A DNA stretch of 64,000 bases from Planctomycetota bacterium (GTDB taxonomy: Bacteria; Planctomycetota; PLA2; JAEUHO01): NCBI GenBank assembly GCA_965223505.1, contig CBDCWP010000044.1:224001-288000 (forward strand). Direction: 5' to 3'. The translations under genes were made by a program, and so were the position numbers. The notes beneath the pieces are model-generated. The model had not been told where the DNA came from, did not search any database, and worked only from the letters and a program-made list of their open reading frames with translations. The first letter of the stretch is position 1. Every line of letters begins with the position of its first letter. Of this stretch, positions 4,248 to 55,058 are shown piece by piece.

Positions 4248-4361
4248 AACGACCGGTGCGCTCGTGAACCGACGGATGTATCGGATTCGATGGGCTCGTC
4301 GCCGCGCCGGCCGTCTTGACGCACCTCTCTTGTTTAAAGTCTGCGGGAGAACATCGGTTAC

Positions 4362-4571
4362 GGGGGCCACGAGAAAAGCATTGCCAACCGGGGGAGAGTT
4401 CCGGTCGTATGAGCAAGGAAGCGAGCACGGGCAGAGAGCCCTAGGTGAAGAAACATGCCCCCCCCAGCAGAATTGAAGCCGCATGACGAAGTCGGACTGG
4501 CAGGAGGACTACGAGCCTCTGAGTGAGCCAAGCCGGCGGGGAGGGCTGGCAACTCCCTCTGCCCCATTTTT
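4362..4571 (+). ncRNA. Candidate structured cis-regulatory leader RNA, copy A (family not recognised)
   Basis: Shares ordered sequence blocks and stems with 51130-51296 upstream of a paralogous gene; ends in a GC-rich stem plus TTTTT. Confidence 0.6.
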
Positions 4572-4583
4572 CGAAGGACTTGC

Positions 4584-4931
4584 ATGGCACCGATCACGCT
4601 GACGAGACGAACGTTCATGGCCGCGACCGGCGCGACCGTGGGCGCGATCGCGCTCGTGGGATGCGGCGGCGGCTCGACGCCGACCGCGACGCCGATCGAT
4701 ACCAGCAAGGCGTGGCGGCTGTCCGGCGCGAGGCGCCGGATCTCCAACGCCGCCAAGAGCCACAACGCCAACAAGGTCTTCGCAACCCCCCTGGCGGCCC
4801 ATGTGGGCCGCGCGCACCCCGGCGACACGTCCAAGATCGTTCCGATGGACGTCAATCCGAACACGTGGTTGAAGCACTTCGGCGCCGGCGACCCTTGCGT
4901 CGACCTGCGTCAGATCGGCGACAAGCTGTAG
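4584..4931 (+). CDS. Small Tat-exported lipoprotein, unknown function (paralog of 50695..51111)
   Basis: TRRTFM twin-arginine motif and LVGC lipobox; conserved SNAAK.HN.NK.FAT..AA..GRAH.GDTSK core. Confidence 0.8.
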   Translation: MAPITLTRRTFMAATGATVGAIALVGCGGGSTPTATPIDTSKAWRLSGARRRISNAAKSHNANKVFATPLAAHVGRAHPGDTSKIVPMDVNPNTWLKHFGAGDPCVDLRQIGDKL

Positions 4932-5694: not shown

Positions 5695-5952
5695 ATGGCC
5701 GGTATCGAATGGGCCGTTCTGATCCTCCAGGGCTACGTCGCGGCCGGCTTCCTCTTCGCCGTGCCGTTCGCCTTCGTCGGCGCCAAGCGCATCGACCCGG
5801 CGGCCGCCGAGGGAACGCTCGGGTTCCGACTGCTGATCATCCCCGGCGCGGCCCTGCTTTGGCCGCTGTTGATTCGACCGTGGTTGCAAGGCGCGGCGTA
5901 CCGCCCGGCGATTCGTGACGCGCACCGCGACGCGGCGGACACGGACGCATGA
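5695..5952 (+). CDS. Small two-TM membrane protein, first gene of Rieske/ferric reductase operon
   Basis: GGAGG upstream of ATG 5695; two hydrophobic segments; stop overlaps next ATG. Confidence 0.75.
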   Translation: MAGIEWAVLILQGYVAAGFLFAVPFAFVGAKRIDPAAAEGTLGFRLLIIPGAALLWPLLIRPWLQGAAYRPAIRDAHRDAADTDA

Positions 5953-6368
5953 TCCGGCGGCTGCGGCGGCAACATCGCGTCACGTTCCTGATCCTGGCGG
6001 TCTTGCTTCCGGCCGTGGTCGTGGCTGCGGTCCTGGCGCGACCCGAGCTGCCGCCGGAGCCGGAACAGCTTGCGTGGCGCGACCAGCGCCCCGGGGGCCG
6101 GACGACGTTCGAGATCGCACAGGAGTCCGGCTGGATCACGCTCACCCGCACATCCGCCTGCGGTGCGCCGGACCTGCTCCTCTACTGGGCGCCCGAACCG
6201 GGCCGGACGGGAGAGGCGGGGCTGCCCGAAGGTGCTCGCCTGCTCGGGACCCTCCCGCCGCAGCCCGACATGCGCGTTCGCCTGAGCGAGACCGGGGGAC
6301 ACGTGATCCTCTACAGCCTGGGTCATCGGGTCGTTCACGCGACGCGAGCGCTGGAGGCAGGTCGATGA
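5949..6368 (+). CDS. Hypothetical membrane-anchored protein
   Basis: ATGA overlaps at both ends; N-terminal TM; PDLLLYW and LYSL.H motifs. Confidence 0.7.
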   Translation: MIRRLRRQHRVTFLILAVLLPAVVVAAVLARPELPPEPEQLAWRDQRPGGRTTFEIAQESGWITLTRTSACGAPDLLLYWAPEPGRTGEAGLPEGARLLGTLPPQPDMRVRLSETGGHVILYSLGHRVVHATRALEAGR

Positions 6369-7399
6369 GCGTGAACTACCGCGCCGTCGGCTGGAATCGC
6401 CAGAAGCGCATCTACGACCTCGTGATGCTGGCCAGCGTTGGGGTATTCCTGATCGGCTTCACCGCCCTAGGTCGCATCGTCGATCCCAATCTCACGTCGA
6501 TCACACTGATGATCAGGGCGACGGCGGTGGCGGCGTTCGTTCTGCTTCACGTCACGCTGTCGATCGGACCGCTGTGCCGCTTGGACCCCCGCTTCCTTCC
6601 GTTGCTCTACAACCGGCGCCACATGGGTGTGACCGTGTTTGCCCTGGCGGCCGTTCACGCGTTCCTGGTCTACGCGCAGTTCCACGCCAATGGCGTGCTG
6701 CATCCGCTCGTGAGCATCCTCGTGGGGAGCGACCGCTACGACAGCCTCGCATGGTTCCCCTTCCAGCCGCTCGGCCTCGGTGCCTTGATCATCTTGCTGC
6801 TCATGGCAGCGACGAGCCACGACTTCTGGCTGCGAAACCTCACCGCCCCTGTGTGGAAGGCGCTGCACATGCTCGTGTATCTGGCGTACGCGCTCGCCGT
6901 CGCGCACGTCGCACTCGGCGCGCTCCAGCCCGAGCGAAGTCCCGTGCTGCTTGCGCTCCTCGGGCTCGGCGTGGCGTGGATCGTCGGACTCCATGCCTTG
7001 TCGGCGACTCGCCATCGAGTGATCGCGCCCGATACCGGCGACGACTTCGTCGATGTAGCGGCGGTGAGCGAGATCGCCGACAAGCGCGCAAAGATCGTCG
7101 AGATCTCCGGAGAGCGGGTCGCGGTGTTTCGCGACGGCAACCGGATCAGCGCCGTTTCCAACGTCTGCCAGCACCAGAGCGGGCCGCTGGGAGAGGGGCG
7201 CATCGGGAAGAACGGGTGCATCGCCTGCCCCTGGCATGGCTACGAGTACGAGCCGGCGACGGGCGCTTCGCCACCGCCGTTCACGGAGCGTATCCCGACG
7301 TTCAACGTTCGCGTCGAAGGAGATCGGGTCCTCGTGCATCCGCGACCGAACGCACCGGGCACGCGTGTCGAGCCCGCCGTCGTGGAGGGCGTCCGATGA
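6365..7399 (+). CDS. Ferric reductase-like (MsrQ-like) TM domain fused to a Rieske 2Fe-2S domain
   Basis: RRHMGV and WKALH heme-type TM motifs; Rieske CQHQSGPL and CPWHG. Confidence 0.9.
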   Translation: MSVNYRAVGWNRQKRIYDLVMLASVGVFLIGFTALGRIVDPNLTSITLMIRATAVAAFVLLHVTLSIGPLCRLDPRFLPLLYNRRHMGVTVFALAAVHAFLVYAQFHANGVLHPLVSILVGSDRYDSLAWFPFQPLGLGALIILLLMAATSHDFWLRNLTAPVWKALHMLVYLAYALAVAHVALGALQPERSPVLLALLGLGVAWIVGLHALSATRHRVIAPDTGDDFVDVAAVSEIADKRAKIVEISGERVAVFRDGNRISAVSNVCQHQSGPLGEGRIGKNGCIACPWHGYEYEPATGASPPPFTERIPTFNVRVEGDRVLVHPRPNAPGTRVEPAVVEGVR

Positions 7400-48317: not shown

Positions 48318-49151
48318 TTACTCGACGTCGTCGTCGGGGAAGAAGTTCACGCGATCGTGTTCCTGGGCTGCGAACTCGCTGGGCCGATAGCCGGAGAACG
48401 CTCGAAACTCGCGGATGAAGTGGGCCTGGTCCGCGTAGCCGAGCTCCAGGCTCAGACCGGCCCAGTCCACGGACGACTGCGATTGGAGCCGCTCGAACAC
48501 CTGATAGAAGCGCAGGATGCGTTGCATGCGTTTCGGCGTGGGCCCGACGTGCCGGCGGAAGAGCTCGAGGAATCGGCGGTACGACACCGATCCCTCCTCG
48601 GCGACGAGGTCGGTGAATCGCACCGTGCCGGGTGTCGCGAGGAGGTGCTTCATCACGAAGCGGATCACCGGCGGCGCTTCGCGGGATGGGTCGTGGCGGT
48701 CGCAAAGCCACGTGTGCAGCGCAGCCAGGCCGGCCATGGCTTCGTTTGCGAGGAGCGAGTCGCGCAGCGTGGCGATCTCGGGGCCGAACACCTCGCTTGC
48801 GGGTACGACCCGGTCGCAGTAGCGGTCGAGGTCGTCCGGCAGGAGGCAGCGCGCGCGGCCGGGCGCAAACTGCGCGGCGACGAGCTTCGAGGCGGGGCGC
48901 GTTTCACCGATCGTGATGTAGTTGCCGTGCACGCCGGACAGCCATGCGCCTTTGCAGGGTTGTCGGGGTTCACCGGTCTCGTTGTCGAAGACGTATCGAG
49001 TTCGTCCGTCGAGCTCGATCACCAGATGAATGCGACCGTCGGGGACGAGTCGTTCGAGCCGGTGTTCCGGTTCGTAGCCGGAGACCGAGAACATGTTCTC
49101 GACGACGCCGACGAGCGGCGGCTCTGACGGGACGTACGGCACGTACTCCAT
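48318..49151 (-). CDS. AraC family regulator (DUF6597-like N-terminal domain)
   Basis: ERLVPDG; F...VG.TPK..RI.RF and GYADQAHFIREFR.FSG. Confidence 0.92.
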   Translation of the reverse strand: MEYVPYVPSEPPLVGVVENMFSVSGYEPEHRLERLVPDGRIHLVIELDGRTRYVFDNETGEPRQPCKGAWLSGVHGNYITIGETRPASKLVAAQFAPGRARCLLPDDLDRYCDRVVPASEVFGPEIATLRDSLLANEAMAGLAALHTWLCDRHDPSREAPPVIRFVMKHLLATPGTVRFTDLVAEEGSVSYRRFLELFRRHVGPTPKRMQRILRFYQVFERLQSQSSVDWAGLSLELGYADQAHFIREFRAFSGYRPSEFAAQEHDRVNFFPDDDVE

Positions 49152-49244
49152 CCGTAAAACGTACGGAGGGTGGGGCGGCGGTGCCATGCCTCCTGCCGAT
49201 CGTCATCGCGGATTCCGGATCGCGCGGTGGGGGCGCGAGAGAAG

Positions 49245-49291
49245 TGGTGGGCGTTACTGGACTCGAACCAGTGACCCCCAGCTTGTCGAGC
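49245..49291 (-). tRNA. 3' half of tRNA-Val(GAC); att-site remnant, not a full tRNA
   Basis: Minus strand GCTCGACAAGCTGGGGGTCACTGGTTCGAGTCCAGTAACGCCCACCA gives anticodon loop, T-arm and 3' acceptor with CCA; no D-arm or 5' acceptor strand upstream. Confidence 0.85.
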
Positions 49292-49325
49292 GAACGAGCA
49301 GCTTGGCGGGGAACCGCTCCGACCT

Positions 49326-50205
49326 CTAGCGAACGCCCTCGAAGACGACCGCAGTCCCGTTCGTGGTGCCTCGTTGCGGAGCACCGACGACGACCGTCGT
49401 TTCGGCGGCACCGGCGGCGTAGCCGAAGCGATCGCCGGAGAGGGGGTTGGGGGCGGACAACACTGCGCCCTCGCGCTGCGTCCACCCTGCAGGGGTCGCA
49501 TCAAAGAGATACGCCGCCCCCTCTCCACCCGCGCCTGGAGCCCCAAGGAGAATGACCCCAGCAAGGGCCGCCACCGACCCGCCGAGTTGGTCTCCGGCCT
49601 CGCCGCCCACGACAGTGAGTGCAGGCAAGGACGACCAAGAGCCGGTGGATCGCTCGAAGACGTAGCCTGCCCCAGCGTTCGCAACGCCACCCACATCGTG
49701 AAGAGGTGCGCCGACTGCCAGCAAGTCTCCGCGCAACGACACGTTCGTGCCGAAGCGGTCACCCGTAGCAGCGTCGCTTGCTTGGACTCGCTGCTCAAGT
49801 GACCAAGTGGATCCAGTGCGAACGTAGATGTACGCTGCGCCGGCGCCTGACTTCCCGCCGTGCGACTCGAGTCGGCCCCGACTGCCGCCGTGTCTCCGTC
49901 GATGGCGGCCGCGAACCCGAACTCGCCCCAGATACTCGAGAGCAACTTCGCTTCCGGAACTGTGTTCCACCCCGCCGCGCCTCGGCGGAAGACGTAGGCC
50001 GCACCCTCGACGTGGGCCCCTACCACGATAGTGTCAGCGTCGATGGCGACTACGCGGCCAAACTGTGCTCCGCCCCCGCCGTTCGGGAGCAGTTTCGTGT
50101 CGAACTGCCAGTCCGTTCCGCTCCACTCGTACACGTATGCAGAACCTGCCTGGGATGCCCAGTCATCGTCGAGGACCGCCCCGATAACGAGGGTGTCGGC
50201 GACAT
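49326..50205 (-). pseudogene. FG-GAP repeat protein remnant, 5'-truncated and frameshifted
   Basis: FG..VAI.GDT.VVGA...GAAYVF repeats split over two frames near 49870. Confidence 0.8.
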
Positions 50206-50399
50206 CCTTGCGGACAAGACGCGCGGGACCAGGCCTCGCGAGCCCATGCCCCGCCAAGCGAAAGCGAGGTTCTGGCGCGGGATGCCGCCACCGAGAGAGC
50301 CCCCAGAGCCAGCCGGCCAAGTTGACGGCGCTGGAATACCGATTCTCCCTCCGAGAACGAGAGCTGGTTCCCAGACGGAGCGGCCAGAGCGACGCGTAG

Positions 50400-51357: not shown

Positions 51358-51756
51358 GCCGGTAAGTCGCGCGGTACGGAGTCCGGACCGATTCCGGACG
51401 TTTATTGCGGGAGTGCCTGAGGCAATACTCAAGGCTGATCTTCCCTGAGGATTGGTGAGGATTCCGACCGAGCAGAGGGCGATGCTTGCTCGCGGCCAAC
51501 CAACCGACATTCGTGTCTTTCCAAGCCGGAACTTGGTCCCCCGAAACGAACATGCGGAGATCGTGCGGCCCACGCGCTGCTTGCTCCCAGGTCGCCTCAT
51601 CAATCAGATCGGTCCGCACGCCAAGGTTGTCCATCTTTGATGCCGTTCGTACGACCTTGTCTCCCTCGACGAATAGGTGACCTGCGAAGGGCAGGAAACC
51701 GGTGTTGATAAGGCTCTCTCCTTTGGCTGGCCTATGTGCCAGGGAAAGGAAGAGAG

Positions 51757-53118
51757 ATGAACGACGATACGAAGGCGCCCGAGAGGTTGGACGGCCCGCT
51801 TCCGAAGGGAGGCGGAGGCGACGAAGTCGCCGGAGCCGAGCGGAGGAAGCGGGCCGTGAGCGGCTACGTGCCCCGCGGCACACGCAGCCGTCGTGCGCGA
51901 ACGGTGCGAAGCGACGCATCGCGTAGCGCGGAGTTCACGGGCGAGCAGCGCCTGTTGGCGCTTGACTGTTGGTTTCGCAGCGAGCTTGCGGCCACGGAGT
52001 TCGCGCCGCTGATCGGCGTGAGCACGGCGTCGCTGTACGCGTGGCGTCGCAAGTTCGAGGAGGAGGGCCCCGCCGGTTTGCTCGGGCACAAGCGCGGCAT
52101 GAAGGGCAGCGGGCTGCCCGAGCCGGCGCGCCGTGCGATCCTGATGATGAAGGACGCGCATCCGGACTGGGGCCAGGATCGGATCCACGACATGCTGATC
52201 CGAACGGAGGGTATCTCGGTTTCAGGCGGCGCGGTTCAGCGCGTGCTGAAGGAAGCGGGCTACGAGGTGGAGGCGGTTGCGCCGGCGCGCAACCCGCCCA
52301 AGGTGAAGCGATTCGAGCGCAAGCGACCGAACGAGCTTTGGCAAACGGATCTATTCACGTTTCTCCTGAAGCGCGAGCGTCGGCGCGTGCACCTGGTTTG
52401 CTACCTGGACGACTTCTCGCGTTTCATCGTGGGCTTCGGGCTTCACGCATCGGCGTCGGGTGCGATGGTTCGGGAGACGTTCGAGCAGGCGATCGCGAAC
52501 TTCGGCGCGCCCGAGGAGATTTTGACCGACAACGGCGCGCAGTATCAGACCTGGCGCGGGAAGAGCTCGTTTCGCAAGCTTTGCGAGAAGCGCGGCATCA
52601 AGCAGATCGTGGCCAGGCCGAGGCGGCCGCAGACGCTTGGCAAGATCGAGCGTTTCTGGGGCACGCTGTTTCGCGAGCTGATCGACGGAGCGATCTTCCG
52701 CGGCATGGAGGACGCCAAGACGCGCATTGCCCACTTCATCGGCTTCTACAACTTCCAGCGCACCCACCAGGGCATTGGCGGCCTGGTTCCAGCGGACCGA
52801 TTCTTCGAAGCCTCGCAGAGCGTGCGCAGCGCCCTGCAGGAGGCGGTTGCAACGAACGCCAAGGAGTTGGCGCTTCACGGTGAGCCGCGCAAGCCCTTGT
52901 ACCTGGCGGGTCGAATCGGCGACGAGCCGGTGTCGCTTCACGCCGAGGGCGACAAGGTGCTGTTGACGGACAAGGACGGCGTTCGCGAAGAGGTCGACTT
53001 GCGGGCATCGGGCAAGCGCAAGGATGCGGCCAAGGAGGGGCCGGGCGAGAGCGTGCTCGACGACGTGCTCGAGGAGCTCAAGGCCCTTGACGAGGCGCCC
53101 ACGAAGGAGCAGGAGTAA
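51757..53118 (+). CDS. IS481-like transposase (HTH plus rve core)
   Basis: RFER..PNELWQTD, DDFSRF, LTDNG.QY, PQTLGKIERF and YN..R.HQG. Confidence 0.92.
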   Translation: MNDDTKAPERLDGPLPKGGGGDEVAGAERRKRAVSGYVPRGTRSRRARTVRSDASRSAEFTGEQRLLALDCWFRSELAATEFAPLIGVSTASLYAWRRKFEEEGPAGLLGHKRGMKGSGLPEPARRAILMMKDAHPDWGQDRIHDMLIRTEGISVSGGAVQRVLKEAGYEVEAVAPARNPPKVKRFERKRPNELWQTDLFTFLLKRERRRVHLVCYLDDFSRFIVGFGLHASASGAMVRETFEQAIANFGAPEEILTDNGAQYQTWRGKSSFRKLCEKRGIKQIVARPRRPQTLGKIERFWGTLFRELIDGAIFRGMEDAKTRIAHFIGFYNFQRTHQGIGGLVPADRFFEASQSVRSALQEAVATNAKELALHGEPRKPLYLAGRIGDEPVSLHAEGDKVLLTDKDGVREEVDLRASGKRKDAAKEGPGESVLDDVLEELKALDEAPTKEQE

Positions 53119-53624: not shown

Positions 53625-53955
53625 GCGCGTGAAGGTGATTCTGCTCACGCTTGGCCGGCAGTGGAGCGTTGGCGATGCGTGCGAGCGTTTGGGCATCGGC
53701 CGAACGCGCTTCCAGGATCTTCGACGTAGGTTCTTGCAGGCCGGCGTTGAGGCGCTTGAAGGCGGCGCTTGTGGCCGGCCGCGCGCCGTGCTGCCTGACG
53801 ACGATCATGAGCTTGAGCGCGAGGTGTCGAAGCTACGGCACCGAGTGCGCGTGGTGCGAACGCAGGTGGACATCTTCGATTGCGGGCTTGGCGAGGCGCC
53901 GCGGGTTCGGCACGCGCTGCATGTGGCGCACCAGGGAGGATGGAGGCAGGGATGA
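53560..53955 (+). CDS. Small HTH accessory protein
   Basis: SV.DACERLGIGRTRF HTH followed by GRP. Confidence 0.75.
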   Translation: MGRRSEMPTLVARTSASETARERVKVILLTLGRQWSVGDACERLGIGRTRFQDLRRRFLQAGVEALEGGACGRPRAVLPDDDHELEREVSKLRHRVRVVRTQVDIFDCGLGEAPRVRHALHVAHQGGWRQG

Positions 53956-55058
53956 GCGAGAGGATGTCGTACGAGGAGCAGGTGAAGTTCCGGCTTCAGG
54001 CCGTGGAGGTGATGCGGCGAAGTGGCTGGGACAAGGAAACACGCGCCTACCTGGCGCGAGTCCTTGGCGTGGCCGAGCGAACGATCAGGCGGTGGGAGCT
54101 TCGCGTTCGCCAGGGCAAGCCGGTGTACGAGAAGCGTGGCCGCAAGGCCGATGACGTACCACGAGCGAAGCGGCAGAAGGTGCTGCGTGCGATGTTCGAG
54201 CTCGGGCCGTTCTCGGGTGTGACCGTACTTCGGGGAATGTTCAGCGACGTGCCGTATCGAGTGCTCTCAGAGATGAAGAGGCGCCTGCTACGGGTGGCGC
54301 TGCGTCGATGGCGCTGGTATCGGAGGCGGCTAAAGTGGGTTCGTGCCGGGGCGGTGTGGGCGGCGGACTTCACCAGGCCCAAGGCTGGCCTGTGGCAGGG
54401 CAAGGATCGACTGTTCCTGGTTCGCGATCTCGGAAGCGGAGCGCAGCTGGCGGCCGTAGCCTGCCGGGGCGAGAAGACGAAGACTGTGTGCGCGGCGCTG
54501 CTCGCATTGATCACGCTGTTCGGAGCGCCGCTCATTCTGAAGAAGGACAACGCCGGCGCATTTCGCTCGGAACAGACGGCCGCGTTGCTCGAGGAGCACG
54601 GCATCACGCCACTCACGTCGCCGCCGTACACGCCCGCCTACAACGGCGCGTGCGAGCGCAGCGGCGGGAACTTCAAGCGACGTGTACAGCACATCGCGCA
54701 GATGGAAGGACATCCCCGCATCTGGCTACCTCAAAACCTCGACGACGCCTTGCTCGTTGCGAATACGACGGCGAGGCCATGGGGTGCGACCGGGCCCACG
54801 CCGGCGGAGGCCCTCGAAGACCGCCGGCCCATCACGAGGCAAGAGAGAACGGCATTCGCGCACGATCTGAAGATCGAGACCGATGCCGCGCTCAAGACAT
54901 TCAAGGAAAGAAACGCTAGAATGCCGACGTGCATCGAGCGCGCGTCAATCGACCGCAGCGCGACGCAGAGAACGCTCTGCAAGCACGGCTATCTACAGTT
55001 CCGGAGAGGGCGTTTATCAACACTAGTTTCCGCTTGGCGGAGGCGGCCTAACGCGTAG
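53952..55058 (+). CDS. Second integrase-core transposase
   Basis: HTH (LGVAERTIRRW); WAADFT, VRDL.SG, K.DN..AF and SPPYTP.YNG.CER. Confidence 0.85.
   Translation: MSERMSYEEQVKFRLQAVEVMRRSGWDKETRAYLARVLGVAERTIRRWELRVRQGKPVYEKRGRKADDVPRAKRQKVLRAMFELGPFSGVTVLRGMFSDVPYRVLSEMKRRLLRVALRRWRWYRRRLKWVRAGAVWAADFTRPKAGLWQGKDRLFLVRDLGSGAQLAAVACRGEKTKTVCAALLALITLFGAPLILKKDNAGAFRSEQTAALLEEHGITPLTSPPYTPAYNGACERSGGNFKRRVQHIAQMEGHPRIWLPQNLDDALLVANTTARPWGATGPTPAEALEDRRPITRQERTAFAHDLKIETDAALKTFKERNARMPTCIERASIDRSATQRTLCKHGYLQFRRGRLSTLVSAWRRRPNA

Follow-up and report, generated by a model that had tools for sequence, protein, structure and literature searches.

A pseudoknotted leader RNA upstream of small Tat-signal lipoproteins in Planctomycetota and other bacterial lineages: a candidate orphan riboswitch absent from Rfam 15

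The glmS RNA (RF00234) is a large pseudoknotted 5' leader that accompanies a single gene family across distant phyla. In the cobalamin riboswitch (RF00174), the interior of a multi-helix aptamer contacts the loop of a 3' regulatory hairpin, and surface or lipoprotein scavengers are often the genes repressed. The ZTP (pfl) riboswitch (RF01750) is composed of two sub-domains joined by a pseudoknot, with inserts of variable length and a U-run in many members. Ribosomal-protein leaders, which are autoregulatory, show the same linkage of one leader to one gene family, kept across phyla.

In the window, i.e., the whole stretch of 64,000 nucleotides of Planctomycetota DNA that was analysed, a leader element is present twice, as copy A (4332-4571, + strand) and copy B (51322-51130, - strand). 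With the first three of these RNAs it was compared by cmscan. Like glmS, the element is a large pseudoknotted 5' leader bound to one gene family over distant phyla, but cmscan gave no match, and the gene here encodes a small exported lipoprotein whereas glmS encodes the enzyme that makes the ligand. As in the cobalamin riboswitch, the interior of the putative aptamer base-pairs with the loop of a 3' regulatory hairpin; however, the contact here is a single strand-loop pairing and not a loop-loop pairing, the junction sequences differ, and the cobalamin models RF00174 and RF01689 were both absent at E ≤ 10 on both copies. With ZTP it shares sub-domains joined by a pseudoknot, variable inserts between them, and a U-run after many members, but again no cmscan match was obtained, and the present leader far exceeds it in size and contains two additional long-range closing helices. 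Unlike in the ribosomal-protein leaders, the protein is an exported one, and no RNA-binding fold was recognised in it. Orphan riboswitch candidates in general (review PMC7266159) are likewise conserved, covarying leaders upstream of uncharacterised genes with an orphan ligand, whereas the present motif is not among the Rfam 15 families and was not found by term search in genome-survey papers. Both window copies are best read, with a probability of roughly 0.55, as members of an uncatalogued leader family that is cis-regulatory for Tat lipoproteins, and specifically as an orphan riboswitch; the leader probably switches the lipoprotein gene in response to a signal.

The two look-alike stretches had been noticed in a first-pass annotation made from the sequence, which placed them at 4362-4571 (+) and 51296-51130 (-). 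Both were found at these positions, and index slicing located every one of the reported conserved blocks, in order, in A and B. The starts needed revision, since the element begins approximately 30 nt further upstream in copy A (4332) and 26 nt further upstream in copy B (51322), and the added stretch contains the 5' strands of P0 and P1, long-range helices that the annotation lacked. Aligned over 324 columns, the copies have a mean column identity of 71%. All coordinates below are on the + strand for copy A and on the - strand for copy B.

The element opens with the 5' strand of P0, at 51322-51319 in copy B, where it pairs at four of four positions with the 3' strand at 51142-51139 and includes a compensatory pair relative to most relatives; the corresponding position in copy A, 4332-4335, is able to pair with 4559-4562 at two of four positions. 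The 5' strand of P1 follows (4340-4346 in A, pairing with 4479-4487 with one bulged base; 51313-51308 in B, pairing with 51204-51199 with one mismatch). Next come the G-run that forms the 5' strand of P2 (4362-4367, pairing with 4457-4462; 51296-51293, pairing within the C-run 51220-51214), a conserved octamer (4372-4379; 51285-51278), and a variable hairpin (4387-4405; 51272-51263). The pairing of G-run and C-run that had been proposed is helix P2, a homologous helix being predicted by RNAalifold in compact relatives, and the hairpin described with a GAGA-ending loop is P3 in both copies (4429-4441; 51246-51231). After P3 there is a conserved GUGAA (4445-4449; 51229-51225) and then the C-run (4458-4465; 51220-51214). 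The last bases of the C-run, together with those next to them, form the 5' strand of a pseudoknot that was not in the annotation (4464-4468 in A, pairing with loop bases 4545-4549; 51216-51213 in B, pairing with loop bases 51155-51152, four pairs only); the partner is the loop of the last hairpin.

Downstream of the 3' strand of P1 (4479-4487; 51204-51199), the conserved junction and variable stem seen earlier correspond to the junction and P-var (4488-4536 in A, with a lower helix, an internal loop and a variable hairpin; 51198-51165 in B), the pairs of which covary. The stem for which a compensatory change had been reported is the last hairpin, P-term (4538-4558 with loop 4544-4552 carrying the 3' strand of the pseudoknot; 51163-51143 with loop 51157-51149). 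The 3' strand of P0 (4559-4562; 51142-51139) and a U5 run (4567-4571; 51134-51130) complete the element. In copy A the U5 run is followed by a Shine-Dalgarno-like site (4574-4578) and the P0001 gene (4584-4931), which encodes a 115-aa Tat-signal lipoprotein; copy B precedes the P0002 gene (51111-50695), which encodes a 138-aa Tat-signal lipoprotein. The two proteins are paralogous, as had been stated, and are 50-59% identical. In copy B all helices are present, with the single mismatch in P1 and the four-pair pseudoknot given above.

Several features of the surroundings were recorded. Upstream of copy A lies an ORF of 924 aa that encodes a CHAT domain and TPR repeats (142-2916, +), and downstream an ORF with a ferric-reductase-like transmembrane domain and a Rieske 2Fe-2S domain (5915-7399, +). 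A gene for an FG-GAP-repeat protein (49019-50320, -) lies 375 nt downstream of the P0002 gene on the same strand, and may or may not be co-transcribed with it. Two integrase-core (rve) transposase-like genes (51736-53118, +; 53880-55058, +) are located beside copy B, the first being divergent from it; the RNA-gene cassette may have mobile DNA as its neighbour. An inverted repeat that resembles a terminator and has a T-rich tail (51377-51399, +) is found just upstream of the promoter-like hexamers of copy B.

The 64-kb window was searched with cmscan against Rfam 15, as the annotation had advised, and no family matched either copy (0 matches at the gathering score over the window). At E ≤ 10, copy B gave nothing and copy A gave two chance-level rows, both on the opposite strand. 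For seven distant relatives, with the limit set at E ≤ 1, the sole match was an unrelated tRNA. The annotation had been unable to assign the element to the TPP, SAM, cobalamin, glycine or cyclic-dinucleotide riboswitches. Its suggestion that the 3' part recalls domains V-VI of a group II intron (Intron_gpII) was not supported: those models have as their hallmarks a conserved domain V hairpin and a bulged branch site in domain VI, no intron family was reported at E ≤ 10 on A or B, and the region consists instead of the junction, P-var and P-term with covarying pairs. No description of the motif was found in the literature, where genome-survey papers were covered by term search of their text. 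The leader is a real, conserved, structured RNA and is absent from Rfam 15. Its size, pseudoknot, highly conserved junctions and attachment to one gene family across phyla would also suit a glmS-like self-cleaving or metabolite-dependent ribozyme that governs mRNA stability, but no ribozyme family matched at E ≤ 10 and no conserved candidate cleavage site was identified, which makes a ribozyme extremely unlikely.

Loci were collected by way of the protein. Of 100 related genomes sampled, 28 were further members of the window's own family, and 13 of these had the lipoprotein, whereas it was found in none of the 72 outside the family. A protein-profile scan of species-representative genomes gave 42 loci, ten of which duplicated earlier loci; the lineages named in the record titles were Planctomycetota (including Phycisphaerae), Candidatus Dadabacteria, Thermodesulfobacteriota, Nitrospiraceae, Candidatus Hydrogenedentota, Candidatus Binatia, Acidobacteria, and an FCB-group bacterium. 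By eye and with MAFFT, the leader was recognisable without a model in 16/16 loci of the window's own family and also in distant phyla. A covariance model of the 3' half of the element (R1) matched 46 of 48 non-redundant protein-anchored loci, 45 of the 46 being training sequences and one (L066, 22.9 bits) not. At the two loci missed (L053 and L065), the available upstream DNA amounts to only 13 and 25 nt, so all 46 testable loci carry the leader. In total, the element precedes a homologue of the downstream gene at 44 additional loci in other genomes. The element is carried by at least eight labelled, almost entirely uncultured lineages, and its conservation at the nucleotide level spans genomes of 41% to 74% G+C. 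A scan of metagenomes with a pattern of the conserved core returned 80 loci, 0/80 of which were matched by the model; these were set aside as chance matches in G+C-rich DNA.

RNA-first searches were then considered, in which approximately 236 genomes were searched with the model at E ≤ 0.001 and the best 25-150 first-look candidates were scored per genome. The window's own genome gave the two window copies and no other among the best candidates. Among the best candidates from 150 other genomes of the phylum there was one match, at a known locus (in G015), and five genomes from five lineages gave one match apiece, also at the known locus. From 80 genomes around two of those five, 20 further matches were obtained, 10 of them outside the training set with scores of 53.5-82 bits; in all 20, a gene of the family is on the same strand, 26-219 nt past the end of the model. 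Altogether, 28/28 matches (27 genomes) among the best 25-150 candidates per genome were directly upstream of a family gene, a figure from which RNA copies beside other genes could have escaped. Since the element recurs at 44 further loci and in RNA-first matches outside the training set, the likeness of the two window copies is judged to be far beyond chance. To judge by position, the element lies in the 5' UTR of the gene and on its strand. The data describe a previously uncatalogued family of pseudoknotted 5' leaders of ~150-330 nt that precedes one family of small Tat-signal lipoproteins. Such exclusive linkage to one family would also be expected if the leader were autoregulatory and bound by a protein, or were a glmS-like ribozyme.

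For the homologue leaders, whose comparison had also been recommended, strong conservation and covariation were found. Compensatory changes support an architecture of six helices plus a pseudoknot. P0 is a 4-bp closing helix between the presumed 5' end of the transcript and the bases just past the last hairpin. Nested in P0 is P1, a helix of 5-9 bp that encloses P2, an internal loop, P3 with its GAGA-type loop, and optional inserted hairpins. On the 3' side of P1 are the highly conserved junction, P-var, in which the internal loop is conserved and the tip variable, and the G/C-rich P-term, the loop of which pairs with the single-stranded stretch that separates P2 from P1 to give the pseudoknot. 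The leader is thus a covarying structured domain.

Two alignments were used for counting, one fitted to the covariance model (A6) and one a sequence-only MAFFT alignment of 46 full-length elements, the 5' ends of which were chosen with the pairing in view (A7). As the sequences are related, the shuffle and permutation figures given here overstate significance and are not probabilities. For P-var and P-term, 94.4% of the cells were paired in A6 compared with 75.9% in shuffles, 13/15 pairs were changed on both sides, and slid registers reached at most 56.5%. For P0, 97.3% were paired in A7, with three of the four pairs changed on both sides; 41/46 rows were counted as fully paired at the four positions, and copy B (L009) also has 4/4. 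The exceptions are two alignment gaps, L022 with 2/4 in this register, which is taken for a register shift resulting from a 2-nt deletion, and copy A. For P1, 82.7% were paired in A7, a value lowered by members that are off by one register, 6/7 pairs were doubly changed, and slid registers reached at most 48.2%. RNAalifold applied to 12 compact members predicted P0, P2, P3, P-var and P-term unaided, with compensatory changes in 20 of the 27 pairs.

Counting of the pseudoknot in fixed columns was abandoned, as the register of the loops and of the 5' strand varies from sequence to sequence in both A6 and A7, and a permutation test was used instead. In 34 sequences, the 20-nt window 5' of the P1 3' strand was compared with the P-term loop, leaving out one duplicate, L066, and 10 Dadabacteria-type members. 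The last were excluded because the best partner of their P-term loop overlaps the 3' strand of P2. The sum of cognate complementarity was 504, compared with 381 ± 15 (maximum 440) for permuted loops, and 0/20000 permutations reached it. In the corresponding test of P0, with windows placed by P1 alone, the sum was 330 versus 188 ± 22 (0/20000), and a free search for P1 was weakly significant (776 versus 730 ± 17, reached by 82/20000 permutations). Unrestricted searches had low power, which is why the window-restricted tests were substituted: for P0 plus P1, cognate and non-cognate means were 28.5 and 22.2, the cognate being strictly best in 6/46, and for the pseudoknot they were 15.1 and 12.9, with the cognate strictly best in 5/46. 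The folding energy of the single sequences was no better than that of shuffles (z of +1.42 and +1.14 for the two window copies); the support for the fold is comparative, not thermodynamic.

In the Dadabacteria-type loci (L028, L030-L032, L041, L043, L045, L046, L052, and L056), the 5' strand of P2 resembles the P-term loop. The overlap in these members may represent built-in mutually exclusive pairings or a different register of the pseudoknot.

Copy A (L010) is the sole true loss of P0 among the 46 leaders, the loss being in the 5' strand (2/4 pairs). The TTGAC hexamers that the annotation had pointed out are present upstream of both copies (4316-4321 in A; 51357-51352 in B), but the promoter scan called no sigma-70-like promoter at either. 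The hexamer of copy A is 10 nt before the P0 position and that of copy B is 29 nt before P0, i.e., 19 nt closer to the fold in A. Copy B also has a -10-like hexamer (51334-51329) after a 17-nt spacer; it ends 6 nt before P0 and falls below the threshold of the promoter scan. If the promoter of copy A had the geometry of that of copy B, the transcript would start after the 5' strands of P0 and P1. With the complementarity of P0 lost, copy A could escape or alter the control by the leader, and it may be a decoupled or differently regulated paralogue. The relative L031 has a 12-of-12 sigma-70-like promoter, the end of which lies 7 nt upstream of P0. From this promoter and from the placement of the copy B hexamers, the RNA seems to begin at P0.

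A U-run of at least four residues within 16 nt past P0 is present in 22/46 members, including both window copies, and absent in 24/46. The low-GC Dadabacteria-type members have it in 0/10, and their folded 3' end lies ~17-21 nt before the start codon, whereas many members have 60-240 nt between the fold and the coding match. The earlier proposal of a riboswitch or attenuator came through both tests that had been named as able to refute it, a significant Rfam match and a lack of covariation or conservation in homologue leaders, and it stands as far as a new structured leader is concerned. A canonical terminator was not detected: a terminator scan on the RNA strand called no hairpin plus U-run in copy A, in copy B or in L044, a locus with a U8 run, and no G/C-rich hairpin is followed by a U-run within 0-2 nt. 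The U-run starts 8 nt past P-term in both window copies, and no canonical terminator is called because the 3' strand of P0 and 2-4 C residues separate P-term from it. With 7-8 nt between P-term itself and the U-run, termination would need a hypothetical stacking of P0 and P-term. An extended terminator with three extra pairs flanking P-term was examined by eye and rejected, as the changes that are compensated in P0 are uncompensated there and the pairing is also missing in lineages rich in U-runs.

A U-run directly after the fold in these 22/46 members, together with a fold-to-coding gap in many that leaves room for a second promoter, would also be expected of a stand-alone small RNA of ~200 nt, made from a separate promoter and with its 3' end at the U-run, that acts in trans or in an RNP, the lipoprotein gene being merely a conserved neighbour or read through. 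This is very unlikely, given that a canonical terminator was not detected, that the Dadabacteria-type members have no U-run and a start codon within ~20 nt, which makes the element a 5' UTR there, and that 0/28 RNA-first matches among the best 25-150 candidates per genome were apart from the gene, with 20/20 of those checked on its strand.

The Shine-Dalgarno-like site bears on the direction of the switch. By eye, in the window's family, this site resembles the 5' strand of P-term and is complementary to the 3' strand, so the polarity might be the opposite of the one proposed below: the folded state would hold the 3' strand of P-term off the Shine-Dalgarno site, and the ligand would turn translation on. 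However, the complementarity is missing in most other lineages (by eye), and since any G-rich strand looks Shine-Dalgarno-like the resemblance could be coincidental; this polarity is regarded as improbable.

The proteins were analysed with several tools. Both P0001 and P0002 have a twin-arginine motif, a hydrophobic stretch and a lipobox cysteine at the N-terminus; P0002 scored just above and P0001 just below the cut-off of the NCBIfam Tat-signal model, and beyond the Tat signal no Pfam or NCBIfam family matched either protein. The window's own genome has two genes of the lipoprotein family and no more. A profile search of 1.84 billion representatives gave 348 clusters (at 50% identity) with E ≤ 0.001, of which 163 had E ≤ 1e-10, and nearly all are 100-150 aa long. 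The mature domain contains an invariant, strongly basic stretch, and AlphaFold2 (40 sequences) predicted a confident small alpha/beta domain with pLDDT >95 for residues 41-110. A sequence search of the PDB returned nothing for the lipoprotein, Foldseek with the predicted domain gave no match at E ≤ 0.001, the best Z in VIA-align was 2.9, and an Atlas search returned nothing named. For residues 40-110 of P0001 (window 4701-4913), many very weak rows of both fold searches belonged to the ADP-ribosyltransferase superfamily (Tpt1/KptA, ParT, Arr, and RES), with scores far too low for a claim of kinship.

Among the 10 longest relatives picked, three (P0115, P0124, and P0126) carry cell-surface modules, namely SLH plus TIG, carboxypeptidase-regulatory plus dockerin, or a T9SS C-terminal sorting domain; a word search for longer forms, which is weak evidence, found none. 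The fused modules point to a role of the domain outside the cell, and the regulated protein is, by its predicted signal and lipobox, extracytoplasmic. Riboswitches often repress scavenging and surface functions, and the extracytoplasmic location predicted here fits such a function. The neighbouring genes of the lipoprotein loci showed no conservation and included no conserved regulator gene. A gene for a Na+/phosphate cotransporter is directly upstream on the same strand in L028 (1017-2612) and, as equivalent ORFs, in L031 and L056; it was seen in these three closely related low-GC loci only and in none of the other lineages.

The same protein data bear on a leader bound by a protein, in which the fold would be recognised either by the folded Tat precursor while still in the cytoplasm, giving feedback when export is saturated, or by a dedicated RNA-binding regulator, and the binding would set termination or translation. 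Tat substrates fold prior to export, and the invariant basic stretch of the mature domain and the strict linkage to one gene family in the 28/28 RNA-first matches are in keeping with it. On the other hand, the rare relatives fused to surface modules indicate that the domain has its function outside the cell, the protein showed no recognisable RNA-binding family or fold, and a conserved neighbouring gene for a regulator was not seen. Control by a bound protein is consequently considered unlikely, and the orphan riboswitch is retained as the preferred reading.

For the orphan riboswitch, the following mechanism is proposed. The fold would act as an aptamer for a small molecule or ion, and binding of the ligand would lock the pseudoknot, P1 and P0. 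In the members with a U-run (about half, the window included), the locking might then stack P0 under P-term into a helix of ~10 bp that ends 2-4 nt before the U-run, so that termination could be favoured and the gene turned off. In the Dadabacteria-type members, the compact 3' end near the start codon might instead place the control at translation initiation; the steps after locking are suggested with less assurance than the locking itself. A bolder version, which is doubtful though conceivable, would combine a new riboswitch class for a novel RNA-sensed ligand, a surface lipoprotein of new fold as the scavenger or receptor of that ligand, and a 'split terminator', in which the closing helix stacks under the last hairpin and completes the terminator stem only when the whole fold is locked, pseudoknot included.

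Orphan riboswitch classes have repeatedly led to unrecognised metabolites, ions and signalling molecules. If the closing helix does supply the missing part of the terminator, it would be a new type of expression platform. The window offers a natural comparison in this respect, between the intact copy B and the paralogous copy A without the closing helix. Identification of the ligand would give the first functional handle on a lipoprotein family that lacks a Pfam entry, a relative of solved structure and a recognisable fold.
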